Shown here one piece after another: positions 1,094 to 16,441 of a DNA stretch of 64,000 nucleotides (positions are counted from its first letter, which is position 1; every line of letters begins with the position of its first letter). Source of the DNA: a virus (lineage: Duplodnaviria; Heunggongvirae; Uroviricota; Caudoviricetes). A program made the position numbers and the translations under genes. The stretch covers positions 13,246-77,245 of the IMG/VR virus record IMGVR_UViG_3300013936_000013; one strand, 5' to 3'. Below the pieces are notes generated by a model. The model made no database searches and was not told the DNA's origin. It saw only the letters and a list, made by a program, of their open reading frames with translations.

Positions 1094-1167
1094 TAACCGC
1101 GCCTCTTTCTTTAGCTCTTGTTTCTATACATAGTATAGCATACACAGGGCATTTTGTCAAGGGGTAA

Positions 1168-1692
1168 TTATAAATTTTTGCAGGCTTCAAAAATTTCATC
1201 TGCCTGCTGTAAATCAAAAGTTACACCCATGAATCGGTCATTCTTTACAAAAGTGTTGGGGTATTGCTTAATATACTTAGCTCTGAAATAACTCTCAAAA
1301 CATTCTGGCGGGACTTCTCCGCAATCATAGACCTTATCACAAATGATTTTAGTTACGCCTAACTTAGCATAGCTTTTGTAATGCTCTCGCATCCGCTGTT
1401 CCACTGTTCTAGTAGTAGTGCCAATCTTAGAAAAGAGTAGCCCTGAATCAGTGTAAGCCCGCATCAGATAAAAATAATTTGCGGTTTGCTTGAGCTTTTG
1501 CTCAATTTTGGTAATAGTTTTCTTGATGGGGTCAATGATATACTTCTTACTCCACTCTTGAGAAGAATGGAAGATTTCAACACAAATGTTGAACCACTTG
1601 TTCACCCATGTCTTAGAAGTGTGACCCCACCGATAAAATGCTTCCTCAAAATCACCATTCGCAAGGCATTCAGCCATAGTCTTTCTGCTCAT
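1168..1692 (-). CDS. GIY-YIG/T5orf172-like nuclease-domain protein
   Basis: C-terminal YFYLMRAY...FSKIGTTTRTVEQRMRE resembles the GIY-YIG/T5orf172 pattern; promoter at about 1719-1748. Confidence 0.55.
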   Translation of the reverse strand: MSRKTMAECLANGDFEEAFYRWGHTSKTWVNKWFNICVEIFHSSQEWSKKYIIDPIKKTITKIEQKLKQTANYFYLMRAYTDSGLLFSKIGTTTRTVEQRMREHYKSYAKLGVTKIICDKVYDCGEVPPECFESYFRAKYIKQYPNTFVKNDRFMGVTFDLQQADEIFEACKNL

Positions 1693-1931
1693 TTAACTTA
1701 CCTCTCTTTCAGTAAGTATAGTATACACCTTTGGCTATTGTATGTCAAGCGTTTTGGGATAATTCATTAAGCAATTTTGACCAAATTTTTGCCCGCAAAT
1801 TTGTGCAAGTAGCCTATTGATGCATAAAGCGTTTCGTGGCGCAAGAACACGAAACGCCAAGGGCTTTTTACACCCTTGGCATCTCGCAGAGCCTTATTTT
1901 TTAACCTCGCAGTTCACTTGCGAGGGGTGAA

Positions 1932-2357
1932 TCACTCCTCAATCTCGCCGTTATCCTCGGCATTGCCCTTAATCACCTCGTACAGAGAAACCTTCTTCTC
2001 TTTCCACTGGCGGACACGAGTGCCCTTCATCTTAGTCAGCAGAGAAGTGACACGCTGGGACGAAACCGCACCAGCCAGACGACCAGCGCAAGACTGACAA
2101 ATCTCACCGACAGTCATGGGGCGGTCAGCCGCTTCCATGACTTCCAGAATCACCTGCGAATCAGCATCGCCCGCAATTTGGGACTTAGTGGGCTTAGCAG
2201 AACCGCCAGCCTTCTTCGACAGCAGACCAACTTCGTGGTCAATCCACGCCAGCAGTTCATCGTTGGTCATCTCCTCGATGAACGAGCCATCACAGACCTC
2301 GATGCGATTGCGGATAGCGTTGAGAACCTGAACCTTAGTCATCTTAGTAGTAGCCAT
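1932..2357 (-). CDS. Putative winged-helix DNA-binding protein (paralog of 3807-4241)
   Basis: IDHEV.LL..K....KPT..Q...RPMTVGEI...SSQRVTSLLTKM pattern shared with 3807-4241. Confidence 0.6.
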   Translation of the reverse strand: MATTKMTKVQVLNAIRNRIEVCDGSFIEEMTNDELLAWIDHEVGLLSKKAGGSAKPTKSQIAGDADSQVILEVMEAADRPMTVGEICQSCAGRLAGAVSSQRVTSLLTKMKGTRVRQWKEKKVSLYEVIKGNAEDNGEIEE

Positions 2358-2676
2358 AAATACAACCTCTTTCTTTTGTTTGATGTGATTTTCGATGTTC
2401 CTCTTGGAACATCTTTATTATACCACAGATTTGGAAGTTTGTCAAGTGCTTTTTTTAGATTCGCAATCTTTTTGTTTCGCTCACTTGCGAGCTTCCTTGT
2501 CTGTTGTAATTATTATACCATAGAAAGTGGATTTTGTCAAGAGGAATTTTTATCAATCAAGATATTTCCTTTTGTCTTATTTTCCCTTTCTGTATATATA
2601 TTATACCATACATTTTCAAAAAAATCAATAGGTAATTTTGGGAATCAAATCATAGAAATTTTGGGCACATTTTCTA

Positions 2677-2705
2677 TTGACAAAATCTGAAAGGTGTGGT
2701 ATAAT
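2677..2705 (+). promoter_or_regulatory. Consensus sigmaA promoter driving a short hairpin RNA
   Basis: TTGACA-17-TATAAT with TG extension; no ORF downstream; hairpin at 2714-2740. Confidence 0.85.
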
Positions 2706-2771
2706 AGAATTTTCGCCCCGCAATGATAGAGCGCGGGGCGTCCGAAGGATGACAATAAAAAAGAAGGGCGA

Positions 2772-3011
2772 TTAGCCCTTTTTATAACCCTCTACAAAAG
2801 CCCCATCAACAAGATACACGTCTGTATCTTCAAAAGTGTAGTCACGCTCACCATTTTCAATACCAATGCAATTCCACATTGCATTATACTGGTCTTTAAC
2901 AGGCTGTACTTTCATATAAATTGGACCGTCAATAGTTTCCCTGTAAGTGCATCCCTCTTCCAGTTCAGAAAAGAGATAAGTATTTGCTTCGACTTCATTG
3001 ATAATTTTCAT
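2772..3011 (-). CDS. Hypothetical protein (79 aa)
   Basis: ORF track; GGGGGTG RBS; ends at hairpin terminator. Confidence 0.7.
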   Translation of the reverse strand: MKIINEVEANTYLFSELEEGCTYRETIDGPIYMKVQPVKDQYNAMWNCIGIENGERDYTFEDTDVYLVDGAFVEGYKKG

Positions 3012-3023
3012 GTAAGCACCCCC

Positions 3024-3353
3024 TTAATAAACACCATAGGCTTCAAGCGCACGATGCGCCAGCTCTAACAGACAATACTCACCCTCATTGTCCTGCATAA
3101 AATTTTCAATTTCTTCATTCACATCATGGTTGCGGTCATTGCGACAATCTACCAGCTTGCCCTCTTCATCAAAAGTAAACTCAACATCGCAAGCGCAATC
3201 CTCTCCATCATCCACATAGAAAGTGACATACTTCCTGCCGTCATGGTCATACTCGTGCGGATAGGCGTTGTAACCTACTTCGGATGCGTTCTCATCCATC
3301 CGCCGTGCCAGTTCCTTAACCAACTCATAATCAGTAACCTTAGAGAAATCCAT
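3024..3353 (-). CDS. Hypothetical acidic protein (109 aa)
   Basis: ORF track; AAGGAG RBS; perfect minus-strand promoter at 3381-3409. Confidence 0.75.
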   Translation of the reverse strand: MDFSKVTDYELVKELARRMDENASEVGYNAYPHEYDHDGRKYVTFYVDDGEDCACDVEFTFDEEGKLVDCRNDRNHDVNEEIENFMQDNEGEYCLLELAHRALEAYGVY

Positions 3354-3405
3354 AGCTAAACCGCTCCTTTCAACACTCTTATTATATCATATTCTTAGGC
3401 TATTG

Positions 3406-3597
3406 TCAATAGCCCAGAATCTGAATTTTGTGGATGGGATGCTTGACATCAAACTTATAATCATGCCAGAAGTTACGAGCCATCTCGCGGATTTCCTCTT
3501 CACTCTTGTACTGAGAGCCATCAACCAGAGTGCGGAAGCACTGAAGCTCATCGCCATCAATATACCAAATCTTAACAACCACAGTATTCATAACCAT
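3406..3597 (-). CDS. Hypothetical protein (63 aa)
   Basis: ORF track; AGAGGAG RBS; TGA stop overlaps the -35 box of the next promoter. Confidence 0.6.
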   Translation of the reverse strand: MVMNTVVVKIWYIDGDELQCFRTLVDGSQYKSEEEIREMARNFWHDYKFDVKHPIHKIQILGY

Positions 3598-3806
3598 TCT
3601 CCTCTCTGTTTCTGTAATTATTATACTATATTTTTAGGAAAATGTCAATAGCAAATTTCAGCGACAAATCCGCAGAAAAATTGTGCAAGATACCTATTGA
3701 CAGGAAAAACGTCGCAGGCCGACAGTGCGCGCGACGTCAATAGGCAGGATAAACAAAAAAGCACCCTGCTTTTCAGCAGAGTGCCAAAGAGGATTGCGGT
3801 TAGGGC

Positions 3807-4241
3807 TTAGCCCTCGGTGACTTCCTCGCCATCCTCATGCTCGTTGCCCAGCTCGAAGTAGGCAACCTTTTTAACGTGGGTGGACTTCACCAGACCTGCT
3901 TCACGCAGTTTGATGAGCATAGCATTCATCTTCTGGTTGCTGGTAATCTCTGCCAGCTCTTCCTTGCCCTCGGTCAGAATCTCGGTGATGGTAGCAGGGC
4001 GGTCAAGGCGTTCCATAACTACCAGCACAGCATCCATCAGCTTCTTGTTGGCTTCCTGCTTAGCGGTAGGCTTCTTGAGCGAACCACGCTTAGCGTCCAA
4101 CAGTTCGACCTCGTGGTCAATGAAAGCAATCATGCTGTCATAGCCCTCGGCGGTTTCAGGCAGAACCGCCTTAATCATTGCGAAGTAATCACGCTTGGTG
4201 AGCTTTTTGGTGGATGCGGACACAGTGTTCATGTTAGCCAT
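3807..4241 (-). CDS. Putative winged-helix DNA-binding protein (paralog of 1932-2357)
   Basis: LTKRDYF...IDHEVELL..K...KPTAKQ...RPATITEI...SNQKMNAMLIKLREAGLVKS..KKVAYFEL. Confidence 0.6.
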   Translation of the reverse strand: MANMNTVSASTKKLTKRDYFAMIKAVLPETAEGYDSMIAFIDHEVELLDAKRGSLKKPTAKQEANKKLMDAVLVVMERLDRPATITEILTEGKEELAEITSNQKMNAMLIKLREAGLVKSTHVKKVAYFELGNEHEDGEEVTEG

Positions 4242-4572
4242 AGTACGTTACCTCTTTCTTTTGTTTGGTTGATGTTCTTTGTGATTTAATTATACCACAG
4301 AGTTGTTGTTTTGTCAAGCACTTTTTTCTTTCTTTTGAAAGAATTTTCTGTTTGCTTGCTTTGACTTCCCTTACTCTGTATCTATATTATATCACGTTTT
4401 GTGCGGTTTGTCAAGAGGCTTTTTTGAATCTTTTTTGCGGGGGCTGTTGTCCTCGCTGGACTCTTAACCCCTCCTGACACTATGTATTATACCAGAAACA
4501 AGAGCAAAATGGAAGTGGCAAAATGACGAACTTTTGGGATAAATGCTGGTGAATATTTGTGCGGTTTTGCCC

Positions 4573-4601
4573 TTGACAAATCTTGCAGGCGGTGGTATAA
4601 T
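4573..4601 (+). promoter_or_regulatory. Consensus sigmaA promoter driving a short hairpin RNA
   Basis: TTGACA-17-TATAAT with TG extension; GC-rich structured tract and terminator-like hairpin follow. Confidence 0.85.
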
Positions 4602-4713
4602 AGAATAACGGCGGAGCCCGATTGAGGGCGGAGCGCCAAAATGCCCCTACCACCGAAGTGATAAGGGCATTAGGCTGAAAGGAAACCGTGAACAGAGAGG
4701 TAATAGGGAATCG

Positions 4714-4777
4714 TGGTGGGAAAGGTGGGTTTCGCACCCACATGGCTAGCTTGTTCTACTACTTGAACTACTCTCCC
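4714..4777 (-). ncRNA. tRNA-like RNA lacking the anticodon arm (64 nt, encoded 3-prime ACCA)
   Basis: Minus strand: GGGAGAG TA GTTC-AAGTAGTA-GAAC AAGCTAGCCAT GTGGG-TGCGAAA-CCCAC CTTTCCC ACCA = 7-bp acceptor stem, D arm, 11-nt linker, T arm, discriminator + CCA; promoter at about 4837-4866. Confidence 0.75.
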
Positions 4778-4868
4778 AGAAAGAGGGCAGAGGGTGCGCT
4801 AACCCTCCACCGCAGTTCCTCTCTTATTGCATTATCATTATACCATAATTTTTTTTATTTGTCAACTG

Positions 4869-5534
4869 TTACCACAGATATTTCTGCATCTTTTTGTGCT
4901 GGCGGTAACAGTGGGCGAGAATCTGGGTTTCAATCAAAACGTCCTCAAGACCAGTGTGCTTTTCAGTAAAATCCGCTTCACCGCTAATATAGCGGTACAG
5001 AATTTCAGCGGTCTTTCTTACCTGTCCGTTAGCGCACACATAGCCATTTTCTTTACACCACTTAATGTAGGTAGGTTGCTTACAAATGGTAGATTGTGCC
5101 ATTTTCATAGTGTCCATGAATCGAGTGCCGTAGGGGAAAAAGTAACGCTGCTTCGAGGAAGTTTCATAGCGTAAAGTCACATGGGTAGAACGATAATCAA
5201 ACCGTGCATTGTGAGCGCAAACATCGGTGATATGATACTTTTTCATCAAAGTCCAAACCGCCTGCCGAATCTGGTAGAGAGTAGCCATCTTGCGTTCACC
5301 CGCCCAAATCTGTTCCCAATACTGGGGAATTTTGTTGGCGTAGTATGCGGATTGCATCAAATCCGCACAGCCTTTGAAAATATCCTTGTTTACAAAGCTG
5401 GCGGTTTCATACACATTGCCATGAGTGTCAACAACTGCACAGCCAAGGTCATACAGCAGGGGGTCATTCAAACCGTTGGCGGTTTCAGTGTCAATCATCA
5501 GAATGTAGTGACGGCGGAAATCAATGTTGTTCAT
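4869..5534 (-). CDS. DEDDh 3'-5' exonuclease (DnaQ/epsilon-like)
   Basis: Exo motifs IDTET, AHNARFD, DTMKM, HTGLED. Confidence 0.85.
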   Translation of the reverse strand: MNNIDFRRHYILMIDTETANGLNDPLLYDLGCAVVDTHGNVYETASFVNKDIFKGCADLMQSAYYANKIPQYWEQIWAGERKMATLYQIRQAVWTLMKKYHITDVCAHNARFDYRSTHVTLRYETSSKQRYFFPYGTRFMDTMKMAQSTICKQPTYIKWCKENGYVCANGQVRKTAEILYRYISGEADFTEKHTGLEDVLIETQILAHCYRQHKKMQKYLW

Positions 5535-5626
5535 GTTATCAATCCTCTTTCTGCAATTCAGGCTTAACTTCTTTTCCTGACTGCTCTTATATTATACCAT
5601 AGGCTTTAGCTTTTGTCAAGCCTTAT

Positions 5627-5863
5627 TTAATGGAAAATAAAAATTCCTATCAACAGACCCAAGCCAAAAATTGCCAATCCAAACAAGAAATCATTGCGAT
5701 GTTTGTATTCATCAGTTTGCATCCATTCCCATTCCTTGCGAGCATCCCATAGATACTTGAACCACGACCGCTGTTCAGGTGTCAGTTTATCGGTATCAGC
5801 CAAAAGAACGTGGCTAATCTCTTCTGCGGTCATGTCGGAAAGTTCTTTGCCATTGAAAGTCAT
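5627..5863 (-). CDS. Small protein with C-terminal transmembrane helix
   Basis: ORF track; FLFGLAIFGLGLLIGIFIF; GAGAGG RBS and promoter. Confidence 0.7.
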   Translation of the reverse strand: MTFNGKELSDMTAEEISHVLLADTDKLTPEQRSWFKYLWDARKEWEWMQTDEYKHRNDFLFGLAIFGLGLLIGIFIFH

Positions 5864-5983
5864 GTTTGCTACCTCTCTTTATTCTGTTGTATCTCTCACT
5901 GGATATAGTATATCATATCTTGAGCCTATTGTCAATACCAAGTTTTAGGATGTGGGCGGGCATTTATTTGTGCAAATTTGCTA

Positions 5984-6012
5984 TTGACAAAACCTGTGAG
6001 CTGTGGTATAAT
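5984..6012 (+). promoter_or_regulatory. Consensus sigmaA promoter driving a short hairpin RNA
   Basis: TTGACA-17-TATAAT; hairpin CGTGCCGC-N11-GCGGCACG at 6020-6046. Confidence 0.85.
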
Positions 6013-6093
6013 AGTAAAACGTGCCGCATTGACCAGAGGCGGCACGAAAAAAGCTAGGGTTCCATCTGCGCCCTAGCTAATTATACTATCTGT

Positions 6094-6390
6094 TTACTCG
6101 GTGACTTCTACCTCAAACCATTCGCAATCTCTATCATCAAGCCAACTCTCTGCTTCGCTTTTAGCCTGTTCTCGAATATCATCTTCAATCCGCTGTCTGC
6201 CTTTTTCAGTTTTCATCCGTCTATACAGGTCACAACAAGAGTAAAGGTCATTCACAGTTTCTGCGACCCAATCTTTGTCTTTCAAAAGTTCTTCAACACG
6301 ATGGTTAAAAAGCTCTTCTTCTACATCCTTATTCATACGGACTTCAACAGGCTCACCATCGACAATATGCACCCAAACAGTCATGTTCAT
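6094..6390 (-). CDS. Hypothetical protein (98 aa)
   Basis: ORF track; AAGGAGA RBS. Confidence 0.7.
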   Translation of the reverse strand: MNMTVWVHIVDGEPVEVRMNKDVEEELFNHRVEELLKDKDWVAETVNDLYSCCDLYRRMKTEKGRQRIEDDIREQAKSEAESWLDDRDCEWFEVEVTE

Positions 6391-6396
6391 CTCTCC

Positions 6397-6657
6397 TTAA
6401 TCACAGAAAATAATCTCGTTAGTTTCGGGGTTGCTAACATTCTCAAGGTCATTAAAACCGTCCTGCCTACAAGCAACCTTATCTGCCCATGCTCGAATTT
6501 TATCTTCCTCGGTATAGTCACATGGATAAGGGGCGTTCAGCGGGTCTTTCTCGTACTCTGCCCATTGCTCCTGATACTTGCGATAGGCTTCCACGATTTC
6601 AGGGGGTGCTTCTACCTCAATCTCATGGTAAGCGGAATAACCAATAGTCAGTTTCAT
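6397..6657 (-). CDS. Hypothetical protein (86 aa)
   Basis: ORF track; AAGGAG RBS; promoter at about 6684-6712. Confidence 0.7.
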   Translation of the reverse strand: MKLTIGYSAYHEIEVEAPPEIVEAYRKYQEQWAEYEKDPLNAPYPCDYTEEDKIRAWADKVACRQDGFNDLENVSNPETNEIIFCD

Positions 6658-6722
6658 ATTTCATAGCTCCTTTCGACACTCTTATTATATCACTTTTGGC
6701 TGTTGTTGTCAAGAGGAACTTT

Positions 6723-6980
6723 TCATTCCTCGACTTCAACCTCAGTCCACATTTCATTGAAAGTGTCCACAGCATCATCATGGATGTACTGGCGCATCTC
6801 TTCCAGTTTGCTTTCTTTATCGGATTCAGTAGCCATGAAATCCGCAACCAGACGGATGAAAGTATCCTTAGAGCAGGCATACTCAATATGGCGAGGGTCA
6901 GTTTCAATCTCGTGGATAATGGCATCAGCCTTATCAACAGACACGACACGATAATCTTCATTGCTCATGTAAACCTTCAT
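6723..6980 (-). CDS. Hypothetical acidic protein (85 aa)
   Basis: ORF track; GAAAGAGG RBS. Confidence 0.7.
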   Translation of the reverse strand: MKVYMSNEDYRVVSVDKADAIIHEIETDPRHIEYACSKDTFIRLVADFMATESDKESKLEEMRQYIHDDAVDTFNEMWTEVEVEE

Positions 6981-7096
6981 ACTTAGTACCTCTTTCTTTT
7001 GTTTAGTTCCTTTCGGTGATTATAGTATACACCTTTGGGGCTAAAATTGCAAGCCTTTTGGGAAAAATAATCTTGAAAAAATTTTGCAAAAAACTC

Positions 7097-7125
7097 TTGA
7101 CAAAATGCGTGCGGGATGGTATAAT
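7097..7125 (+). promoter_or_regulatory. Consensus sigmaA promoter driving a short RNA
   Basis: TTGACA-17-TATAAT; GCGGAGCCAAGC element, then hairpin TGCAAGGGC-N6-GCCCTTGCA at about 7166-7189. Confidence 0.85.
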
Positions 7126-7403
7126 GGAATAAGCGGAGCCAAGCAATTGCGCAGGGGACGCAAAAATGCAAGGGCTATTTTGCCCTTGCACCATATTATT
7201 TTTCACCCCTCATACATGGGCTTCACTTGCCCTTCCTTGTAAATGCTTGCGGTGGCAAGCCGTTCCACCTCTTTGCCTAGCATCATTTCCGCCTGATAAA
7301 CCAGCTCTTCAACGGTTGCATCCTCAACCGCTTCAACAGGGACAGACACCAGCAGATTCACACAGTATTCCATAGCTTTAACCGCCTTTTTATTAAGAGG
7401 GGC

Positions 7404-7838
7404 TTACACCAGCCCCCACAGCTCTTCCATCATATCGTTGGCATTGATTGCATCACCCAGATTCCACGCATCAAGGTTTCTGTCCTCGTCATCCACCAGA
7501 ATGGCGGTTTCAGCGGTGGCGACTTCCTGCTTAGGAGTGCCATACTTTACAACGTGGATTTCCTCGGCGTAGGGGAAGTATTTCGCCAGCCATTCACGCT
7601 TAACCGCCTCAACCTGTGCATCAAATGTGGGAGTGCCAGATTTGGAACACCAGCTAATCACGCCAATGTGATAGCCCTTGCTCTTGAGTGCCTGAATCAG
7701 AGTGAACATCTTGAGGGCGTCGAACAGAGGTTCAGCCAGTTCGTAGGGGCGAGTGCGGAAGTTCTGCAAGTCGTTCAGCCAGCCATTCACGCCATAGAAG
7801 TTAGCCAGAGTGCCGTCCATGTCAAAGTAGATAGTCAT
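7404..7838 (-). CDS. HAD-superfamily phosphatase, 5'(3')-nucleotidase-like
   Basis: Motif I IYFDMDGTL and motif IV ILVDD. Confidence 0.8.
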   Translation of the reverse strand: MTIYFDMDGTLANFYGVNGWLNDLQNFRTRPYELAEPLFDALKMFTLIQALKSKGYHIGVISWCSKSGTPTFDAQVEAVKREWLAKYFPYAEEIHVVKYGTPKQEVATAETAILVDDEDRNLDAWNLGDAINANDMMEELWGLV

Positions 7839-7916
7839 AATCTTTGCCTCTTTCTTTTGTTTTATCTCTCTGTGATTATATTATATCATAGGTGGTGCGG
7901 TTTGTCAAGGGGTTTC

Positions 7917-8111
7917 TTAAACTTTTTCTCCAACCAGCCAGTTGTTAAGCTGACTAAACAGGAAGAAGAAAATCAGCCCGATAATTGCAACAAACCAGTT
8001 CATACCATAACCAGCGAACAGGTTAGATAAGACCAACCAAATCAGACCGCCGTTGAAAATCATGCCGAGGATAGAAGCTACATACAGGGGAATCCAAATC
8101 GTGTTTTTCAT
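7917..8111 (-). CDS. Small membrane protein (2 TM)
   Basis: ORF track; two hydrophobic stretches; GAGAGG RBS and promoter. Confidence 0.7.
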   Translation of the reverse strand: MKNTIWIPLYVASILGMIFNGGLIWLVLSNLFAGYGMNWFVAIIGLIFFFLFSQLNNWLVGEKV

Positions 8112-8324
8112 TTTTATTACCTCTCTCTCTGTGATTATAGTATACCAGATAGGGAAGCTATTGTCAAGCGTTTTAGGAAATTTGCGGGTAGCAGATTGTA
8201 CAACTTTTTCCTAGAGAAATCTGTTGAAACTAGTCATTTTGCCTAAAGCGGCGCCACCTGATTGTAAGCGCGCCGCGAAAATAACCTACCTATGTAGGTT
8301 TTAATTACATAGGTAGGTTAAATA

Positions 8325-8597
8325 TTAGAACTTCTTTGCAGGCGCAAGCACCATTTCAACAGGTTCAACCGTTACATTAGGGTCAAACAGACGGACAAAG
8401 CCAGTAGCACAATTAACTGCGGGAATCTTCAAACCGTGACGATTGAAAATTCCGGGGTCATTGTTCAGCACCTGATAAACACCAACCTTATCACGCACAT
8501 CATCAGAAGTGCGCTGGCACATAAAATGAGTACCGACCTCAAGGGTCTTAATGGCGGGACGAATGCCCTGAGCAGGAAGAATAACACGTGCAATCAT
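8325..8597 (-). CDS. Hypothetical protein (90 aa)
   Basis: ORF track; AAGGAG RBS. Confidence 0.7.
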   Translation of the reverse strand: MIARVILPAQGIRPAIKTLEVGTHFMCQRTSDDVRDKVGVYQVLNNDPGIFNRHGLKIPAVNCATGFVRLFDPNVTVEPVEMVLAPAKKF

Positions 8598-8610
8598 AAA
8601 TTTTCTCCTT

Positions 8611-8748
8611 TCAAATCAGACCAACACAGTTGAAGAACAAACCAATCTCAATGAAACAGGCGATAAGGGCAATTCTATCGAATCCATGCTTCTCAATGTA
8701 ATAAGTGAGCCAACCCAAAACCGCACCAAGGATAATAAACTTAACCAT
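8611..8748 (-). CDS. Small membrane protein (45 aa)
   Basis: Manual translation MVKFIILGAVLGWLTYYIEKHGFDRIALIACFIEIGLFFNCVGLI; GAAAGAGG RBS. Confidence 0.6.
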   Translation of the reverse strand: MVKFIILGAVLGWLTYYIEKHGFDRIALIACFIEIGLFFNCVGLI

Positions 8749-8788
8749 TTATATTTACCTCTTTCTGTTGTTTTCTGTATTTATTATA

Positions 8789-8947
8789 TCACATCTTATA
8801 AGAGTTGTCAAGCTCTTTTTTTATTTTTCTTCGGGCTGACCGCTTGATTTTTGCTTCTAACTTTTGGCGGTTTCTGATGCGAACACATTTTGCATTAAGG
8901 TCTTGAGCTGTATAATCTTTAACGGTCTCACGCTTCATTTTATCCAT
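8789..8947 (-). CDS. Small basic protein (52 aa)
   Basis: Manual translation MDKMKRETVKDYTAQDLNAKCVRIRNRQKLEAKIKRSARRKIKKELDNSYKM; AAGGAG RBS. Confidence 0.6.
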   Translation of the reverse strand: MDKMKRETVKDYTAQDLNAKCVRIRNRQKLEAKIKRSARRKIKKELDNSYKM

Positions 8948-9778
8948 CTTATCAACTCCTTTTGACATTATTATTATACTATATTTTTAGGAAATTATCA
9001 ATAGGCAATTTATACAATAAAATCATTGAAAATTTGTGCGGGGTGTATATTGACAGGCAAAGCGCGTCCGCGCAATCAAGCACGGCACGCCAAAAAGTCA
9101 AGTGGCAAAAATGCATAAAAAATCTGCGGGATTAGCTACTTCCCGCAGATTAGATAAAATATTCAAATATATTGTATATTTGCTACGTCCAGTGCATCTT
9201 TATACCATCCTTTCCTATTGAGTAAGAAGAATTAAAATGTCAAGTCCAGTGCATAATATCCCTCATTCTGTTAGTATAATGTGTATCGTGTAGAGGGATT
9301 GAAGCGGTTCCTTTCTTCAACCTCTAGCTTTTGCTTTCTGCCTTTCTTTTTACACTTCGTAGAAAGAAAATGCCAAAGACTTTATAAAGTGTGTACTCTT
9401 TACTTCCTCTTTTTCAAAAACCTATAACCTATTAGGACATGGGAAGAAATCATACTCAAAGAAGTCATAACAAGCGGGATGAATTTCTTTCTAGGGTCGT
9501 GAGAAGAAACCATCAAAGAAACTTATTGCTTTCCCTACTTTTATAAGATAATAACCCCAGAGCGAAATGTCAATCAATCAGAACTGGTTTATCGGTTACT
9601 AAATCTAAAGAGTGAATTGCGTGTTAATAGAAATGAAGTCTAATCGGAATCATTTTCGCACCTCTATAATCTCATTTCAAAATTTTAGAGGTGCTTCGGC
9701 GGTGCTCTAGTTTTAATATGTATCGCCCCCTGACACTATGTATTATATCATACTTGGCGGTGTTTGTCAAGCATTTTT

Positions 9779-10447
9779 TTAATATTCTCGGCAATAGCCA
9801 GAGAAGTCCAGAATAATAGGCTTACCATGATTGAAACCAATGTTGCTAGTATGCAAATCATTGATTGCATTTTCAACAACAAATGCACAGAGCTTACGGC
9901 AGAGCTTTTTGCCAAAAATTACCAATGCCATACAAGCCCATAGTTGGTCTAAATCTCGGCTGTAATCCTTGTTGCCAGCACGCTGAAACTCACGTTCCAT
10001 TTTATGCCAAATGCGCTTGCTAGAATCCATAGAAGTCTTACACTGTTTAGTGTATTTATTACGCACGTCCCACGGCAAAGAACTAACAGAATACTGAATC
10101 TTTTCCTGAAAAACAAACGTCATGCCGTTCATTTCAAAGGCGATTTCGGTCTTGGGGAAGAAGTCCGCCAAACCTGCGTCAACCGCCTTGGCGTAAACTT
10201 CTGCTTCCTGAACCGCTTCATTGTAGTGGTTATCAGTTACCCACTTACAGACATACAAACCGCTATCATTGCACAGACACAGCTTAGAAGCACCAGAATG
10301 GATACTATAACCGTGGCGGTCAAAATCAGGAGTTGCCCCACGCAGAATGTGCTTCACTCGCCAGCTGTCATCATCCTCGGAATCAAAGTCGCCATCGAGC
10401 AGAATCCGCATCATTTCTTCGCGGTTGTCATACTTCTTCATTGCCAT
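9779..10447 (-). CDS. Protein kinase-like fold enzyme (putative Ser/Thr kinase)
   Basis: GASK loop, YVCKW lysine, DLHTSNIG catalytic loop, ILDFSG metal-binding motif. Confidence 0.7.
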   Translation of the reverse strand: MAMKKYDNREEMMRILLDGDFDSEDDDSWRVKHILRGATPDFDRHGYSIHSGASKLCLCNDSGLYVCKWVTDNHYNEAVQEAEVYAKAVDAGLADFFPKTEIAFEMNGMTFVFQEKIQYSVSSLPWDVRNKYTKQCKTSMDSSKRIWHKMEREFQRAGNKDYSRDLDQLWACMALVIFGKKLCRKLCAFVVENAINDLHTSNIGFNHGKPIILDFSGYCREY

Positions 10448-10564
10448 GTTATCTCCTCTCTTGGCTTATCGCCCTTTCAGTGTCTATATTATAGCAGATT
10501 ATTCAGCTATTGTCTATTAGTAGACTGCACAAGGTTTCAGGAGCAAAATTGTTTATTTTACCTA

Positions 10565-10593
10565 TTGACAGGCGGCAACAAAAATGATATAAT
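10565..10593 (+). promoter_or_regulatory. Consensus sigmaA promoter driving a short hairpin RNA
   Basis: TTGACA-17-TATAAT; hairpin AGCGGCCC...GGGCCGCT at 10612-10642. Confidence 0.85.
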
Positions 10594-10674
10594 AGAAGGT
10601 GCTATGCGAATAGCGGCCCGGATTGATAGAAGGCGGGCCGCTCAACTCTGGCGGGCTGGGCGACCCTCTCTCGT

Positions 10675-10995
10675 TTACTCTTCCTTCGGATAGTAGTGGA
10701 TAGGTGGCTCATTGAACTCAGCAGGGAAAAGCCCATCACCAAAGCAGAACCCCTCCCAACCATAAGCAGACATGATGCGGATAAAGTCCTCTGTAACCTC
10801 ATTCATTAGGTCATCATCCTGCGAGATGGTCAACAGGTCTTCATCTGTTGCTTCATCAGGTACATCCACAGACCAACGAGCCTGCGCGTTCTCATTATTC
10901 AGAGTCAGAACCAGCAGATTCATAGCCTTTACTGCATTAAAACGTTCCATCATAACCAACAACCCCTTTCTTATTCTGCGGAATGGCAATCCCAA
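10675..10995 (-). CDS. Hypothetical acidic protein (true start probably about 10953)
   Basis: ORF track; AAAGGGG RBS before MMERFNAV. Confidence 0.65.
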   Translation of the reverse strand: MGLPFRRIRKGLLVMMERFNAVKAMNLLVLTLNNENAQARWSVDVPDEATDEDLLTISQDDDLMNEVTEDFIRIMSAYGWEGFCFGDGLFPAEFNEPPIHYYPKEE

Positions 10996-11132
10996 ATCTC
11001 AAAGGTAGGATACTTCTGCTTGAATTTCTCCATAGCATCAATAGCGTTCTTGCCATAGAAAGTTTCAACCAGCAGGTCGGCGTTCTCATTGTAATACACA
11101 ATGTCATATGCGTGCATGATAACAGTTTCCAT
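10971..11132 (-). CDS. Hypothetical protein (53 aa)
   Basis: Manual translation METVIMHAYDIVYYNENADLLVETFYGKNAIDAMEKFKQKYPTFEIWDCHSAE; AAGGAG RBS. Confidence 0.6.
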   Translation of the reverse strand: METVIMHAYDIVYYNENADLLVETFYGKNAIDAMEKFKQKYPTFEIWDCHSAE

Positions 11133-11150
11133 TTTCAATCAATCTCCTTT

Positions 11151-11300
11151 TTAGTTCTTATGGGCGAGCAGGTTGAATGCCGCCTTAGCTTCATCGGTCA
11201 TGCAACTGTCACAACAAGCCCCATTATCACAAGGTCTGTTACCCACCTCGTCGCAGGAACAACTACAATATTCGTTCAGAAAATCTTCCCAAGTGTACAT
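11151..11300 (-). CDS. Small Cys-rich protein (49 aa)
   Basis: Manual translation MYTWEDFLNEYCSCSCDEVGNRPCDNGACCDSCMTDEAKAAFNLLAHKN; GAAAGAGG RBS at 9 nt. Confidence 0.6.
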   Translation of the reverse strand: MYTWEDFLNEYCSCSCDEVGNRPCDNGACCDSCMTDEAKAAFNLLAHKN

Positions 11301-11340
11301 TTGTCATAACCTCTCTTTCAGTGTATTCATTATACCACTT

Positions 11341-11472
11341 TCAGCGGTCGGTGTCAAGGGGTTTAGGCAATTTTTTTCGGTTATAGGTGGTCTTTTTTTC
11401 AAATCGTGCGGGTCTGCCAATGAACAGCCGCCTTGCCTTGCGGATCTCCTTTTCCTTATTCTTTTTCAACAT
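11341..11472 (-). CDS. Small basic protein (43 aa)
   Basis: C-terminal part of the track ORF; GAGGTG RBS; MLKKNKEKEIRKARRLFIGRPARFEKKTTYNRKKLPKPLDTDR. Confidence 0.55.
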   Translation of the reverse strand: MLKKNKEKEIRKARRLFIGRPARFEKKTTYNRKKLPKPLDTDR

Positions 11473-11482
11473 CTTAATCACC

Positions 11483-11944
11483 TCACCAGATAAACACATA
11501 GTCAAAGCCTTCCTCGCAGGTGGGCTGGACATAAGAATTATACTGTTTTACAATAGCGTCAACAGGAACAAAAGCCTTGCCAGTACGCTGAGCGTTCTGT
11601 TTAATATGTTGCTCAAGTGCAGGACGGATAACAACAGCATAGAGTTTTGCGGTCTTAGGTATATTAATGCGGCGAAGCACTCTTTTCCGCGCTTTAGGGG
11701 TTAGATGAGTAGCATCCAGCACGATGGATTCCCAACCACGCTCAATCGCACTATTGATGCGGTTGATGTAGGTATCAAACGCTTCTTTTTCGTGGGCAAA
11801 GTAATCATCAGTCTTATACTTTTCCATGACATCAAATCGAGCCACGTCACGAGATACATCAAATGAGTTGGGGAAGTTGTTCTTAATAAAAGTAGACTTG
11901 CCTGCGCCAGCCGCACCAACCATCATGTAAATATATTTAGTCAT
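11483..11944 (-). CDS. P-loop kinase (AAA_33 / polynucleotide-kinase-like)
   Basis: Walker A GAAGAGKST, VLDATHL, RNAQR-like lid; AAGGAGAG RBS before MTKYIYMM. Confidence 0.8.
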   Translation of the reverse strand: MTKYIYMMVGAAGAGKSTFIKNNFPNSFDVSRDVARFDVMEKYKTDDYFAHEKEAFDTYINRINSAIERGWESIVLDATHLTPKARKRVLRRINIPKTAKLYAVVIRPALEQHIKQNAQRTGKAFVPVDAIVKQYNSYVQPTCEEGFDYVFIW

Positions 11945-12205
11945 CTCTATCTCTCCTTTGCTAAAGCAAGTATACCACATTTTCAGGATAAAAACAATGG
12001 GCATATTACACAAAAATCAACCAAGAAAATCATGCAAGATGCCCATTGACATAAATAGCGGCGGGCGTCCATCAAACACGCGCCGCTCAACCTTTTAGGA
12101 TGTTTATTATTCATAGGAAACACAAAAAACCGAGAAAAAATCATCTTAATACCTAGCATGTCAGAGCACCGACCTACTCACCACTGTTTTCGGTCTGCAT
12201 CGAAG

Positions 12206-12385
12206 TTATTTTAATAGCATCAATGCATAAGCACATACATCAGCCATTTCTGAACAGCTTGAAGTTTTGTCGGTTGAAGCTAGGTCATTATAACCAATCT
12301 GCGCCGCCGCAATCATATCTTTCACTGTTGTATTAGAAAAGACTAATTTTAATGCGCTTAGTTCATCTATTGAAAAACTAGGCAT
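12206..12385 (-). CDS. Hypothetical protein (59 aa)
   Basis: Manual translation starting MPSFSIDELSALKLVFSN; GAAAGGA RBS. Confidence 0.5.
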   Translation of the reverse strand: MPSFSIDELSALKLVFSNTTVKDMIAAAQIGYNDLASTDKTSSCSEMADVCAYALMLLK

Positions 12386-12496
12386 TTTGTGTTCCTTTCT
12401 TTATTTATTTCTTACATTATTATTATATCAAAATTTTTTATAAAAATAAAAGAAAGGGCGTGGAGATGAATCCACGCCCAGAGAGAAGAGAGGTAG

Positions 12497-12706
12497 TTAA
12501 TCGCTAATGTAGAAAGAGGGATATCGACCTGCAACCGTATTGCAGTTGTAGTAGTTAAACTCGTTAATCAGCTGGTCAAAAGTGCAATCAGCTTTTGCGG
12601 GGTCGATTTCATAGGCACTGTCAACCCGCATATTACAAGCGGCCATATAGAAGGTCTTGCCCTCATTGAAAAGCTTGCGGGCGGCGGTCTTGTTAATCTT
12701 TTTCAT
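12497..12706 (-). CDS. Hypothetical protein (69 aa)
   Basis: ORF track; AAGGGG RBS before MKKINK. Confidence 0.65.
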   Translation of the reverse strand: MKKINKTAARKLFNEGKTFYMAACNMRVDSAYEIDPAKADCTFDQLINEFNYYNCNTVAGRYPSFYISD

Positions 12707-12724
12707 GGTAGAATCCCCTTTCAA

Positions 12725-12940
12725 TCAATTACGAACAACAACCATAAAGTCATCAAAGCGATAATCCCCATTGGGATCCTTTTCAGCATTGGCTTCAAGC
12801 CATGCCAGCAATGCCAGCCCGTCGGCAATGGCAGTCAAGTCACCGTAGATATAGAAGATGTCGCCACAGATATAAGTGGAAATGATGTCCATGAAATCCA
12901 TGCCGATGTGATTGAAAGCCAGTTCAAAAGCGTTAAACAT
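12725..12940 (-). CDS. Hypothetical protein (71 aa)
   Basis: ORF track; GAGAGG RBS; promoter at about 12982-13010. Confidence 0.7.
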   Translation of the reverse strand: MFNAFELAFNHIGMDFMDIISTYICGDIFYIYGDLTAIADGLALLAWLEANAEKDPNGDYRFDDFMVVVRN

Positions 12941-13006
12941 TTTTATTACCTCTCTTTAATTCAGTTCCTTTTGACACTATTATTATATCATAAATGCGGG
13001 TTTCTG

Positions 13007-13159
13007 TCAAGCCTTTTCAGAAAATCTTTTGAAATTTTCGAGGAACATTTTCAGCGTAGCAAGGTCAAAATCTTCCGCCATAGATTCAGCGGTGCGGTTC
13101 ATCAAGCAGTAGCCGCAAGCAACCAGTTCATTCACAACAGCCATCTTCTCGTTCATCAT
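13007..13159 (-). CDS. Hypothetical protein (50 aa)
   Basis: Manual translation starting MMNEKMAVVNELVACGYCL; GAGAGG RBS; TGA overlaps the next -35 box. Confidence 0.6.
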   Translation of the reverse strand: MMNEKMAVVNELVACGYCLMNRTAESMAEDFDLATLKMFLENFKRFSEKA

Positions 13160-13370
13160 CTTTATTTACCTCTCTCTCTGTTTCTGTATATAGTATACAC
13201 CCTGCAAGGCGGGTTGTCAAGCCTTTTGGGCGATTTTCCTTTCGTCAAATTGCACAAAGAATTGCGCGAAAATCCCGGCGGGACTAGTCATTATGCCACA
13301 GCGGAGCCAAGCGCAGGTGAAGGCGACGCGAAAAATTCCCCGCCTTTTTCTGGCGGGGAAGGCTTGATTT

Positions 13371-13529
13371 TTATTGACCGCAGGCGAGCTTTGCCAGCTC
13401 TCTCATGCACTCATTGGTGGAGATGACCCCACGGTAGCGGAGGCGAACCACCCGCTGAACCTTGTCGCTTAGCACCTCGTCACCCGCAGTCTTGATGTAT
13501 TCAGCGTACTCTTTGATGAACTTCTCCAT
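13371..13529 (-). CDS. Hypothetical protein (52 aa)
   Basis: Manual translation starting MEKFIKEYAEYIKTAGDEVL; GAAAGAGAGG RBS. Confidence 0.6.
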   Translation of the reverse strand: MEKFIKEYAEYIKTAGDEVLSDKVQRVVRLRYRGVISTNECMRELAKLACGQ

Positions 13530-13582
13530 TTTTTGTTACCTCTCTTTCAGTGATTAAAGTATATCATACTTTAAGGCTTTTG

Positions 13583-14044
13583 TCAAGCCTTTTTCTTAAA
13601 ATAAATATAAGTTTCGTCCCAATTATCGACTTCAACATTTTTAATGTATCCATCTTTTTCATAACCATTTTGTAGATAATTATGGATAAGTTCAAATCCA
13701 TACTTGTTTGCCCACTTTTTCAGATAGAAAGGCACTTTCTTAGCGATTTCATAACCATAGTAATGCCATTGCATACTATAATACAAACCGTTTCGCTCTT
13801 CATCCCATTCCAAAACATAGGGAAGCCAATAGTCAAGAACTTTCTTTGCAGTTTGCTCATTCCATTCCTGTTTGTTGTACCACCAATCATTCAGTTTATC
13901 CCATGCAATAAAGAAAGGTGCAATGGGGAGGGCAAGGAAAAAGATTTCATACTTGCCCCACTTAATACGAAAAGAAAACTTTTTATGGTTCTTCTTAGAA
14001 ACCTTGGTCGTAGCTTTAGTCTTAGCGAAATCAAACTCTTTCAT
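13583..14044 (-). CDS. Hypothetical protein with one TM segment (153 aa)
   Basis: ORF track; IFFLALPIAPFFIAW; GAGAGGA RBS. Confidence 0.7.
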   Translation of the reverse strand: MKEFDFAKTKATTKVSKKNHKKFSFRIKWGKYEIFFLALPIAPFFIAWDKLNDWWYNKQEWNEQTAKKVLDYWLPYVLEWDEERNGLYYSMQWHYYGYEIAKKVPFYLKKWANKYGFELIHNYLQNGYEKDGYIKNVEVDNWDETYIYFKKKA

Positions 14045-14111
14045 AATATATTCCTCTCTTTCATGGTTTTATTATATCATAGAATGGGACTTTTGTCAAG
14101 CCCCACAGGGG

Positions 14112-14312
14112 TCAACGCTTGACCGAAATAGCGTCAATCTCCTGCTTGTCATTCATGTGGAACTCGCACAGGGTATAGCTGGCTGCGAGTGCCAGATTCT
14201 TCCAATAGGTCAGATGAGAAAAACCCTTATCAATGTGCCAGACCTCGACGTATTCTGCGAAGCGGGTGGTGGTGGAAGAGCGAACTTCACGAATAAACTC
14301 ACAAACCATCAT
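14112..14312 (-). CDS. Hypothetical protein (66 aa)
   Basis: ORF track; GAGAGG RBS. Confidence 0.65.
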   Translation of the reverse strand: MMVCEFIREVRSSTTTRFAEYVEVWHIDKGFSHLTYWKNLALAASYTLCEFHMNDKQEIDAISVKR

Positions 14313-14428
14313 AATAATTACCTCTCTCTAGCTTTTTAACTCTCTCTGTGATTATAGTATACCACTTCATTCCCATGCTGTCAAGGTTTTAGGACAAAAA
14401 ATAAATAAAAAAATTTTCGCAAAAAGCC

Positions 14429-14457
14429 TTGACAAACCTCGATGGATGTGGTATAAT
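14429..14457 (+). promoter_or_regulatory. Consensus sigmaA promoter driving a short hairpin RNA
   Basis: TTGACA-17-TATAAT; hairpin CGCCGCGC-N9-GCGCGGCG at 14465-14489. Confidence 0.85.
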
Positions 14458-14526
14458 TGAAAAACGCCGCGCATTGGTGGGGCGCGGCGCGACAAAGAGA
14501 AAGGCGCCCTTATAGGCGCCTCCCGC

Positions 14527-14703
14527 TTAGAACTCCGTGTTATCGTCCAACTCGACCTTGCCAAAAATGGCTTCATTCAACCGCTCCCGCAGTTCATAAA
14601 TCTTCTTGGTGTACCAGTCATACAGCTCAATGTTCAGCAGGTTTTTGCTACGCTCATTGTACAGACCAGCCAGTTCCTTTTCCATTGCTACAACGTTCAT
14701 CAT
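14527..14703 (-). CDS. Hypothetical protein (58 aa)
   Basis: Manual translation starting MNVVAMEKELAGLYNERSKNLL; GAGAGG RBS. Confidence 0.6.
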   Translation of the reverse strand: MMNVVAMEKELAGLYNERSKNLLNIELYDWYTKKIYELRERLNEAIFGKVELDDNTEF

Positions 14704-14794
14704 GTTACTTACCTCTCTCTATTGTGTTTTATCTTCCCTGTGATTATATTATAGCATAAGGGGCTTGTTTTGTCAAGCCCCTTTTTGATATTTT

Positions 14795-15115
14795 TTAAGC
14801 CAGCCAAGTAAGCTTCATGTTGCGCCAGCAAAGCACAGACTGCTGATTGTGCTGGATGCCAATAGCTACGGCTTCACGCTTGGTGTTTACTCTCTTGGAA
14901 CTGTCAATGTAGTAAATGCCATTGCTCAGCCACACGCCACAGTCACCCATAGTCTGGATAAACACAGCGGCGATCTTAGCATCTGTGGTTTCATAGCCGT
15001 GAGTAGCGACCTGCCAACCGCTCTTGTATGCAACAGGCTTGCCCGCCTTAAAAGTCTTGCCATCATTATCAGCCAGAGCCATCAGCATTGCGACCAGTTC
15101 ATTGTAGTTCATCAT
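14795..15115 (-). CDS. Hypothetical phage protein (106 aa)
   Basis: ORF track; GAGAGG RBS. Confidence 0.7.
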   Translation of the reverse strand: MMNYNELVAMLMALADNDGKTFKAGKPVAYKSGWQVATHGYETTDAKIAAVFIQTMGDCGVWLSNGIYYIDSSKRVNTKREAVAIGIQHNQQSVLCWRNMKLTWLA

Positions 15116-15194
15116 AAGTCTTACCTCTCTTGTTATGTGTCTCTCTCTTACTGTCTATATTATACCACAGGCTGTGGCTCTTGTCAAGGGTTTT

Positions 15195-15419
15195 TTAGAA
15201 GATTTTTGGCTTCATTGCTTCACCAGTAGAAACCTTTAAGAAGCAACCAGCATTGCAATAATATTCTTTGCGGTCAGGCTTGCCCTCTTCATGGACTACA
15301 CGCCAGATGGCGGTATGAGTGAGAGTAGCCAGCTCTTTTGCACGCTTCCAAGTGAAGCCGAAGGGCTCTTTATCCACGCCAACAATCTGACCAGCGGCAA
15401 TGTAAGTGTACATCTTCAT
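15195..15419 (-). CDS. Hypothetical protein (74 aa)
   Basis: ORF track; GAGAGG RBS; promoter at about 15455-15488. Confidence 0.7.
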   Translation of the reverse strand: MKMYTYIAAGQIVGVDKEPFGFTWKRAKELATLTHTAIWRVVHEEGKPDRKEYYCNAGCFLKVSTGEAMKPKIF

Positions 15420-15531
15420 AGTAGTTACCTCTCTAACTTCTCTTGTTCTCTGTGATTATAGTATACCATAGTCATGGTATACTGTCAAGCATTTCTTAAA
15501 AATATTCTTAGAAAAATTTGCGAAAAAAGTA

Positions 15532-15560
15532 TTGACAAAGCGGGCGATCTGTGGTATAAT
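15532..15560 (+). promoter_or_regulatory. Consensus sigmaA promoter into a non-coding hairpin cluster
   Basis: TTGACA-17-TATAAT; several hairpins follow to about 15850. Confidence 0.85.
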
Positions 15561-15966
15561 GAAGTGGGAGAGCTTCATCTAATAATCTACTAGATGAGAG
15601 TTTTCCTTATTATAATCAGCCCGGCGGATAATGACCAGAATATAATAATATAATGAATAGCAGTTAGTATACTATAACCTAGGCTATTGGTATGTCTATA
15701 CTAACTGCTAAATACTCAATATTAAATTAGGATGAAAAATAAGTTAGCTAATGCAAACAATTAGCAACAAAAAACTACAAAGGTGTTAGCTCATGCTAAC
15801 AACGGGGGATGGCGCTTGAGAGCGCCACGAGTAGCCTTTGCCCGCTCTACGCAGCGTATGGGGGGTGGGGTTTTGGGATAAAAAATATTTGAAAATGAAA
15901 AATGGGTATGTGCTGGTCAACAAAATCTCCAAAAGTTATTTTAATTTTAGATAACGAACAAAATCT

Positions 15967-16263
15967 TTAAAGTTCTAAATTTCGATAGCTTTTTTTAGAA
16001 TACTCCCCTGTACTAATAACAGCCTTCACATCGCCATAACCACCAATAGGTTTAATATTAAATAATTTATTATTATGAATTACTTTATTGTTCCACCAGC
16101 TTTGATAAGAAGCACCATTAAACATTGCCCATGTCTTTCCCGCATCCGTACTATAACAATAGCAAATAATACCATTATGCTTACTTGGAATCTTATAAGC
16201 CTTAGCTTGTTTTGCGGGAACTCCTTCACTTATTAGCAGCTTCTAAAATCTCTTCCTCGTCAT
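15967..16263 (-). CDS. Hypothetical protein, MT(R/K)KRFQKL paralog 1 (code 15, 98 aa)
   Basis: Manual read-through MTRKRF(TAG)KLLISEGVPAKQAKAYKIP...; ends TAA. Confidence 0.75.
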
Positions 16264-16441
16264 CTACCTTACTCCATTTCAACTCAATATCATCTTCAAC
16301 TCTGCTGGTATCTAGCCATTCCTACCTACTCATCCCACATTTGCACATTAAGATACACAGCCGCAAAGGATAACCCATATCATCAAGCTAAATTACATTA
16401 CTTCTTTCATATAGTTTAAAGTCATGTCTGTGAATAAACAT
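16226..16441 (-). CDS. Small Cys-containing protein (code 15, 71 aa)
   Basis: MFIHRHDFKLYERSNVI(TAG)LDDMGYPLRLCILMCKCGMSR(TAG)EWLD...; ends TGA. Confidence 0.7.

Follow-up and report, generated by a model that had tools for sequence, protein, structure and literature searches.

Why should the early region of a phage carry perfect promoters that point against its genes and lead to none of their own? The question is raised by a stretch of 64,000 nucleotides (nt), hereafter the window, which comprises bases 13246-77245 of the complete 141,245-bp IMG/VR phage record IMGVR_UViG_3300013936_000013, from an uncultured gut phage. Its early region (1-15,700) has a GC content of 0.38-0.45, versus about 0.33 elsewhere, and is made of small minus-strand genes, many of them with their own promoter. 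An earlier note on this DNA had pointed out plus-strand promoters followed by GC-rich hairpins in this region, and had taken them for a family of early small RNAs or for RNA polymerase sinks. We describe this unit, a counter-oriented promoter (counter promoter) with a hairpin at the start of its predicted transcript. The reading that we tentatively prefer, with a probability of about 0.4, is that of a cis-acting boundary, in which a gene-less promoter would hold polymerase in place or fire it head-on into the terminator of the upstream cassette.

For comparison, 13 related loci (L001-L013) were fetched via the exonuclease-like gene 4869-5534, and a second, independent sample of 45 distant phage contigs was reached via two paralogous winged-helix-like early proteins (1932-2357 and 3807-4241). 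The window holds 25 exact TTGACA-N17-TATAAT sites, whereas 0.06 were expected from shuffled sequences and none of 100 shuffles reached 25. The seven plus-strand sites of the earlier note (2677, 4573, 5984, 7097, 10565, 14429 and 15532) were all recovered amid the minus-strand early genes. Seventeen further exact sites lie on the minus strand within 2417-15187, in front of small early genes that they are predicted to drive. Behind the plus-strand promoters, no conserved plus-strand open reading frame (ORF) or ribosome-binding site was found for any unit, as the note had said; hidden small ORFs, which it had named as a finding that would count against it, were looked for by ORF reading and comparison with relatives, and none is conserved. 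The only plus-strand ORF with a start near a unit (7166-7375, 69 amino acids) is reduced to 8 codons in L002, and the sequence downstream of this unit is just 28% identical in L002 and L003. In all seven units, a hairpin begins 5-18 nt after the -10 box (7-9 nt in most). In the window and the 13 related loci, the first 50 nt after the -10 have a mean folding energy of -17.0 kcal/mol behind counter promoters (n = 60) versus -3.8 kcal/mol behind gene-direction promoters (n = 303).

We then compared 92 counter promoters with 480-488 gene-direction promoters. G is present at -13 in 84% of the former and 31% of the latter, at -6 in 73% versus 10%, and at -5 in 89% versus 12%. An upstream TTGTRYA motif precedes 58% of counter promoters but only 6% of gene-direction promoters, and the spacer has a GC content of 0.51 versus 0.36. 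Counter promoters are at consensus for every known polymerase contact: the upstream TTGTGCAA, the -35, the 17-bp spacer, the TG of the extended -10, the -10 itself and the GG at -6/-5. They lack the pyrimidine/purine start-site context of gene promoters (T/T at the seventh nucleotide after the -10, versus a pyrimidine at -1 and A at +1), and they open onto very GC-rich DNA (about 0.85 over roughly +2 to +8, versus about 0.3). G at -5/-6 reportedly contacts sigma region 1.2 and lengthens the life of the open complex, a finding ascribed to Haugen and colleagues (2006). Fully consensus promoters are limited at escape and slow to leave. Together, this contact and the slow escape make the counter promoters look built for holding polymerase more than for output.

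The hairpin is conserved as a structure rather than as a sequence. A covariance model (R1), covering the -10 and an 8-bp stem, was built from 12 copies. It gave 54 matches in the window and L001-L013, 53 of them counter-oriented, and 90 matches in the 45 distant contigs, all counter-oriented; that is, 143 of the 144 matches across the window and 58 related phage loci. Over the whole 141-kb genome, the six matches are all in the early region. Nine of the 13 relatives fetched via the exonuclease-like gene carry a counter promoter followed by a hairpin, and the unit is also present in a dozen phage-like contigs binned into metagenome-assembled genomes (MAGs). In the stem alignment, 93% of cells are paired; shuffling lowers this value to 64%, and sliding the partner lowers it to 33-42%. 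All eight stem pairs covary with changes on both sides; this alignment was fitted to R1 and so leans towards structure, but the margin is nonetheless large. The covariation whose absence the note would have held against its proposal is therefore present in related phages. Between lineages with only 43-60% protein identity, stem sequences are unrelated. We counted 44 distinct segments, whose stems are not related to one another, although one of these segments (in L009) is a gene start; in the promoter-hairpin units, stems measure 6-16 bp and loops 3-32 nt. The ATTGA/ATGA loops that had been noticed occur in six copies, but they are lineage-specific, relatives carrying other loops. A promoter class of its own, a hairpin that covaries and a strict orientation show that the unit is designed, and that chance promoters do not account for it. 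The family is real, conserved and under selection; it is from the role of decoy or anti-CRISPR-like RNA acting in trans that the evidence leans away.

The junctions that carry the unit have a regular anatomy. In gene direction, the stop codon of the upstream gene is followed by an intrinsic terminator with its U-tract, the GC hairpin and the backward promoter. Beyond it, where a divergent partner is recognisable, come 43-58 bp of shared upstream DNA, then the next gene with its forward promoter and ribosome-binding site; the gap between the two -35 boxes is 43-58 bp in 13 of 18 scorable back-to-back pairs. Junctions without a unit mostly lack a terminator too, so the 13 units split the early region into blocks. 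Measured from the assumed counter start, the last U of the gene-direction terminator-like site has a median position of +32 (interquartile range 21-42, n = 37 units, in 6 of which the site picked is the GC hairpin itself). This distance would be within reach of a promoter-bound or early paused polymerase, though the spread is wide. Folding energies favour the counter strand for the hairpin (31 versus 13, p = 0.03), in a test biased by the chosen hairpin boundaries, and G-U pairs occupy only about 5 of 349 cells of the stem alignment. A role of the hairpin as back-up terminator was considered, as a U-rich complement of the discriminator and -10 follows it on the gene strand and it was picked in the 6 of 37 cases just given; this signal proves nothing, because any AT-rich discriminator yields a U-rich complement.

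What the unit travels with is informative. Eight lineages carry a unit 140-450 nt upstream of the exonuclease-like cassette, while the genes that it fires into are not homologous from one lineage to another. It is thus the downstream cassette that the unit accompanies, as a cap at its upstream end, and not a particular upstream gene that it regulates. On the next-cassette side, upstream of the unit, identity between the window and L002/L003 is 92-93%; it reaches 97% across the promoter, is 95% over the initial 45 nt of the predicted transcript, where four of five units have 98-100%, and falls to 75-78% just past the hairpin.

If the unit is a cis-acting boundary, each copy would mark the upstream limit of an early-gene cassette. 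Host sigma-A polymerase would bind the backward promoter very tightly, then either stay put or fire a short transcript, whose 5' hairpin would pause it within about 30-50 nt, at the U-tract of the upstream terminator. A head-on meeting with a read-through polymerase would then terminate the upstream cassette and keep the next forward promoter free. Tight binding, slow escape and collisions are inferred here, and the short early RNAs that the units plausibly make would be a by-product rather than the product. Several features agree best with this reading: the promoters strictly oppose the genes, adjoin the upstream terminator and are optimised for binding, a hairpin opens the predicted transcript, and the unit is linked to the downstream cassette. 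The polymerase sink of the earlier note comes close to such a barrier, but the sequences suggest a local boundary and not a global titration.

Two known systems come near to this arrangement. The stoperators of mycobacteriophage L5 are present in many orientation-dependent intergenic copies, bind the phage repressor to silence the prophage, and the bound protein stops elongating polymerase. The units share with them the many orientation-dependent copies in short intergenic gaps, but here the bound protein would be the host RNA polymerase holoenzyme, in a lytic early region. As for collisions, single-molecule work in Escherichia coli by Wang, Watters, Ju and Liu (bioRxiv 10.1101/2022.10.23.513370) found that a head-on collision and a nascent hairpin are both needed to stop read-through at bidirectional terminators, the hairpin fixing the collision site. 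In both systems, converging transcription would come together at a hairpin element; for the units, the likeness is one of sequence anatomy. There, however, both converging partners are genes, whereas the counter arm described here has no ORF, its promoter is only tens of nucleotides from the terminator, and the arrangement recurs at many junctions.

A boundary of this kind would be a protein-free insulator, a gene-less promoter that recruits host polymerase only to block other polymerases. Programmed polymerase collision would become a compact and portable genetic part, promoters would gain a new function, and synthetic biology could make use of a strong terminator-insulator for Firmicutes. 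Uncultured phages of Clostridia from gut and rumen carry the unit widely, and it would therefore shape how early genes are transcribed in a phage group that is large and has been little studied. Counter promoters would always be missed by automated annotation.

Several points weigh against a boundary. Transcripts, start sites and polymerase occupancy are predictions read from the sequence. Distances between the counter start and the U-tract vary widely (+8 to more than +100), so no precise spacing is enforced. All early cassettes have similar strong promoters, and the benefit of a strict insulation between them is not evident; a pure roadblock has no obvious need for a hairpin. Moreover, six copies in the window are retained despite the loss of the -10. 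Other observations on this side would be expected if the units were genes for abundant and stable small RNAs acting in trans, with a 5' hairpin against 5' exonucleases and a 3' end at the terminator of the neighbour. Such RNAs would be decoys or sponges for a host RNA-binding factor or regulator, a nuclease or an RNA-sensing defence protein, their counter-orientation being a secondary adaptation. The hairpin is at the very 5' end of the predicted transcript, its stem covaries strongly, and 5' stem-loops stabilise RNA. Among the window, L002 and L003, the loops are nearly invariant in four of five units, which hints at sequence-specific recognition or at recent exchange, and the paralogous loops of the lineage of the window share ATTGAYAGAG. 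An own-strand terminator-like site is found within 140 nt in 22 of 53 units (42%) versus 19% of random windows, mild evidence, at about twofold enrichment, for a defined RNA product. Finally, one unit, M0 (459-558, minus strand), is the only co-directional promoter-hairpin-terminator unit of the window; with its good terminator it looks like the best candidate there for a plain small-RNA gene.

We nevertheless consider a trans-acting RNA unlikely. A free-standing small-RNA gene does not need the counter-orientation that all but one of the R1 matches display, and inheritance with the downstream cassette also leans away from it. Because hairpins and loops vary among copies and lineages, a recognition sequence shared by all is lacking. 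Over half of the units have no terminator of their own, and the start-site context is poor. No Rfam family matched at the gathering threshold over the whole window, and a search of 1-16500 at E up to 1 gave just a chance MicX match, well below threshold. Terminators are enriched only about twofold, which speaks clearly for neither a discrete small RNA nor a pure read-through. The RNA anti-CRISPR-like role that had been suggested recalls the Racr elements (RNA anti-CRISPRs, solitary CRISPR-repeat units with promoters), which are also promoter-driven, short, ORF-less hairpin RNAs in phage genomes. This role is not supported, because every copy of the unit has a different stem, in a fixed orientation, whereas Racr copies share one sequence and structure, that of the host CRISPR repeat; mimicry was rejected on this copy diversity alone. 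If the RNAs did act in trans, they would form a new class of phage RNAs for counter-defence or host takeover.

The transcript could also act in cis, as an antisense RNA. The OOP RNA of phage lambda (and sar of P22) is a short RNA made from a counter-oriented promoter over the 3' end of a convergent early gene. By analogy, the RNA of the unit would pair with the terminator and 3' end of the upstream mRNA, RNase III would remove the protective 3' hairpin, and the decay of early messages would thereby be timed. The geometry agrees with this: the counter promoter lies just past the 3' end of the upstream gene, 30-60 nt beyond its terminator, and points across that terminator; the A-run behind the hairpin complements the U-tract there; the many units without their own terminator would read into the gene; and, counted from match positions, about half of the 45 distant loci have a unit directly behind the winged-helix early gene. 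We judge it improbable to the same degree as an RNA acting in trans. OOP is single and gene-specific, whereas this unit is generic (7-13 per genome) and follows the downstream cassette while the overlapped gene varies. The fall in identity just past the hairpin speaks against it, the units behind the winged-helix genes of the window (D1 and D2) have lost their -10, and sense and antisense promoters are both of host type, so that no temporal switch is evident. Alternatively, the backward promoter might recruit polymerase so that negative supercoiling aids its divergent partner, hairpin and terminator serving only to shorten the transcript. Inheritance with the downstream cassette would follow from such promoter coupling, as would the fixed back-to-back geometry, with its shared upstream motifs and the -35 gaps given above. 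Many units have no divergent partner within 160 bp in the same scan, however, and a transcript of tens of nucleotides causes little torsional drag; the covarying hairpin at its fixed position and the adjacency to the upstream terminator would also be left unexplained. We judge promoter coupling less likely still.

The lowest probability goes to the view that the junctions are recombination modules which shuffle early cassettes, promoter and hairpin being passengers with little transcriptional function. That recombination occurs at them is clear from the relatives. L001 is 98% identical to the window but lacks a 5-kb block, 8257-13282, which holds several small genes, including an AAA_33 kinase-like gene (11483-12013), and one complete unit (U5). 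The L001 junction is an exact chimera of two degenerate copies of the unit, D3 at the left breakpoint and D6 at the right, with the crossover in the 5' arm of the hairpin. In L002 and L003, many cassette-sized insertions and deletions relative to the window are found at gene borders. In addition, the 15-nt loop of D2 (within 3709-3737) is present as its exact reverse complement in L002 (about 9960-10003) with the stem unchanged, which indicates an inversion across an inverted repeat. Arbiol et al. 2010 (PMC2839356) and Comeau et al. 2014 (PMC4122927) describe similar elements in T4-type phages, the promoter-early stem-loops (PeSLs), in which a strong host-type early promoter and a stem-loop terminator lie between small non-essential early genes, and cassettes are gained or lost by recombination between copies. 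The junctions of the window resemble them in holding a minus-strand terminator and a consensus forward promoter between small early ORFs, and in the loss of the genes between two copies seen in L001; as with PeSLs, the repeated junctions also serve as sites of cassette gain and loss. The PeSL promoter, however, points in gene direction, and a term search of PMC4122927 gave no mention of an opposed promoter; the units add a gene-less backward promoter of a separate class and a second hairpin at its start. The setting differs as well, PeSLs belonging to T4-like myoviruses of Gram-negative hosts. A recombination module would need neither a perfect promoter of a special class, nor a strict orientation, nor a covarying stem. 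Transcription that pulls DNA into the cell was also considered and dropped, because the physical ends of the genome are not known.

Each of the seven intact units lies on the plus strand. U1 (2677-2783) has its counter promoter at 2677-2705, a hairpin at 2714-2740 (8-bp stem, 11-nt loop), an A-run and, at 2761-2783, the bidirectional terminator of the minus-strand gene 2772-3011; it matches R1 at 2700-2746 (49.7 bits). In U2 (4573-4671), the promoter (4573-4601) precedes an imperfect hairpin (about 4609-4636), with a weak R1 match at 4596-4641, and a second hairpin (4640-4671) that is the minus-strand terminator of a tRNA-like RNA (4714-4777). U3 (5984-6078) combines a promoter at 5984-6012, a hairpin at 6020-6046, an A6 run and the terminator hairpin of gene 6094-6390 at 6052-6078, with an R1 match at 6007-6052 (45.3 bits); its promoter and hairpin are 98-100% identical in L002 and L003, whereas the flanks diverge. 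U4 (7097-7190) has a promoter at 7097-7125, an imperfect hairpin at about 7131-7163, an A5 run and the terminator hairpin of gene 7203-7373 at 7167-7190. The promoter of U5 (10565-10642), at 10565-10593, is separated by an 18-nt leader from the hairpin 10612-10642 (R1 match 10608-10646), past which no clear terminator was found. For U6 (14429-14521), promoter, hairpin and terminator hairpin of gene 14527-14703 are at 14429-14457, 14465-14489 and 14502-14521, respectively, and R1 matches at 14452-14497 (41.6 bits). U7 (15532-15607), at the right edge of the early region and conserved in L001, has its promoter at 15532-15560 and a longer, AT-richer hairpin (15566-15607), then a T-rich tract. The stems that the earlier note had singled out, those of U1, U3, U5 and U6, are exact GC stems of 8-9 bp.

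All six degenerate copies that it had suspected are also present on the plus strand. D1 (1801-1925) retains TTGTGCAA (1801-1808) and a -35-like TTGATG (1817-1822) but no -10; its hairpin (1829-1857, weak R1 match 1830-1860) is followed by extra hairpins at 1856-1880 and 1905-1925, and it adjoins the stop of gene 1932-2357. D2 (3681-3785) also has TTGTGCAA (3681-3688) and TTGACA (3697-3702) without a -10; inverted copies of the -35 box flank its hairpin (3709-3737) on both sides, and a minus-strand terminator follows (3757-3785). D3 (8229-8320) and D6 (13283-13360) begin with a shared 15-nt motif (8229-8243 and 13283-13297), which precedes a hairpin at 8248-8276 and a terminator hairpin at 8282-8320 in D3, and an imperfect hairpin at 13301-13329 and a bidirectional terminator at 13336-13360 in D6. 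D4 (9034-9151) has TTGTGCGG at 9034-9041, TTGACA at 9050-9055, no -10, an imperfect GC hairpin at about 9062-9090 and a terminator hairpin at 9121-9151. In D5 (12031-12087), TTGACA (12046-12051) is followed, without a -10, by a hairpin at 12057-12087. The minus-strand unit that had been noticed is M0, with a promoter at 558-530 (-10 TATAAC, TATAAT in L002), a hairpin at 524-498 and, at about 485-459, a further hairpin that carries a T7 run. Both L001 and L002 have conserved it, and its copy in L001 (15007-15050) is the single gene-direction match of R1.

The two minus-strand genes used to reach the distant contigs (1932-2357 and 3807-4241) encode paralogous early proteins of 141 and 144 amino acids that are 36-38% identical and whose C-terminal part looks like a winged helix. 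Each gene has two tandem consensus forward promoters and a third promoter-like site with a degenerate -35. In the 45 distant contigs, a backward unit usually precedes the winged-helix gene by about 500 nt, and in many cases a second unit closely follows it. These proteins are named here as candidates for a factor that might bind the junctions. A strict co-occurrence of protein and unit was rejected in a comparison in which several contigs are fragments: the protein is found in several unit-bearing phages but not on the contig of L008, which has units, and it is present in L010, which has no consensus counter promoter.

The phage itself appears, by inference, to be a phAss-1-like siphovirus of a Clostridia-type Firmicute. 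Its major capsid protein is 52% identical to that of phAss-1, a TAG-recoded siphovirus of the human gut with a predicted Clostridia host (PMC10607447). Among deposited phages, no close DNA relative was found by megablast, and the search for a cultured phage with the unit yielded none: the 23 consensus promoters of phAss-1 all lie on the same strand and it lacks a counter unit, and the Enterocloster phage PMBT24 has no match to the covariance model. A conserved A/T spacer marks a second class of promoters, which read roughly TTGACA-YAAAAAAATTTTTRTGN-TATAAT; this class has 17 copies on one strand of phAss-1 (OQ749652.1), and similar promoters are present in the contig of L011 (G001) and in the window at 4837-4865 (minus strand) and 39977-40005 (plus strand). 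That the spacer is fixed suggests that a regulator binds there or that these promoters form a temporal class of their own.

We also searched species-representative genomes for the TTGTGCAA-N8-TTGACA-N17-TATAAT arrangement of the counter promoters and found it in at least 120 stretches, nearly all from gut Clostridia among the matches listed. On this distribution, it is a host-type element. It recurs in chromosomes of Oscillospiraceae, Ruminococcus and Lachnospiraceae (L016-L095, gut Clostridia genomes and MAGs). Among the matches listed, several chromosomal copies precede what, read from the sequences, look like T-box leaders, and about 10 precede a conserved hairpin of about 50 nt with the loop GCGTAAnTCC and a T-run; it resembles a leader or a small RNA of an undescribed kind.

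Other features of the early region and its surroundings are of less direct concern. No tRNA or tmRNA was detected by ARAGORN. The tRNA-like RNA 4714-4777 (minus strand), into whose terminator (4671-4640) U2 points, has its promoter at 4865-4837; its acceptor stem is 7 bp long, D and T arms are present and the CCA is encoded, but the anticodon arm is missing. Two non-coding stretches lie inside or beside the early region: 9160-9720, of low GC content and with no convincing ORF, and 15610-15960, which has long inverted repeats and is 96-98% conserved in L001. Finally, the minus-strand gene 1168-1692 has a T5orf172 domain (Pfam, E = 6.6e-5) and is likely a relative of homing endonucleases; in L002, nothing aligned to about 1117-1689 of the window, around this gene.

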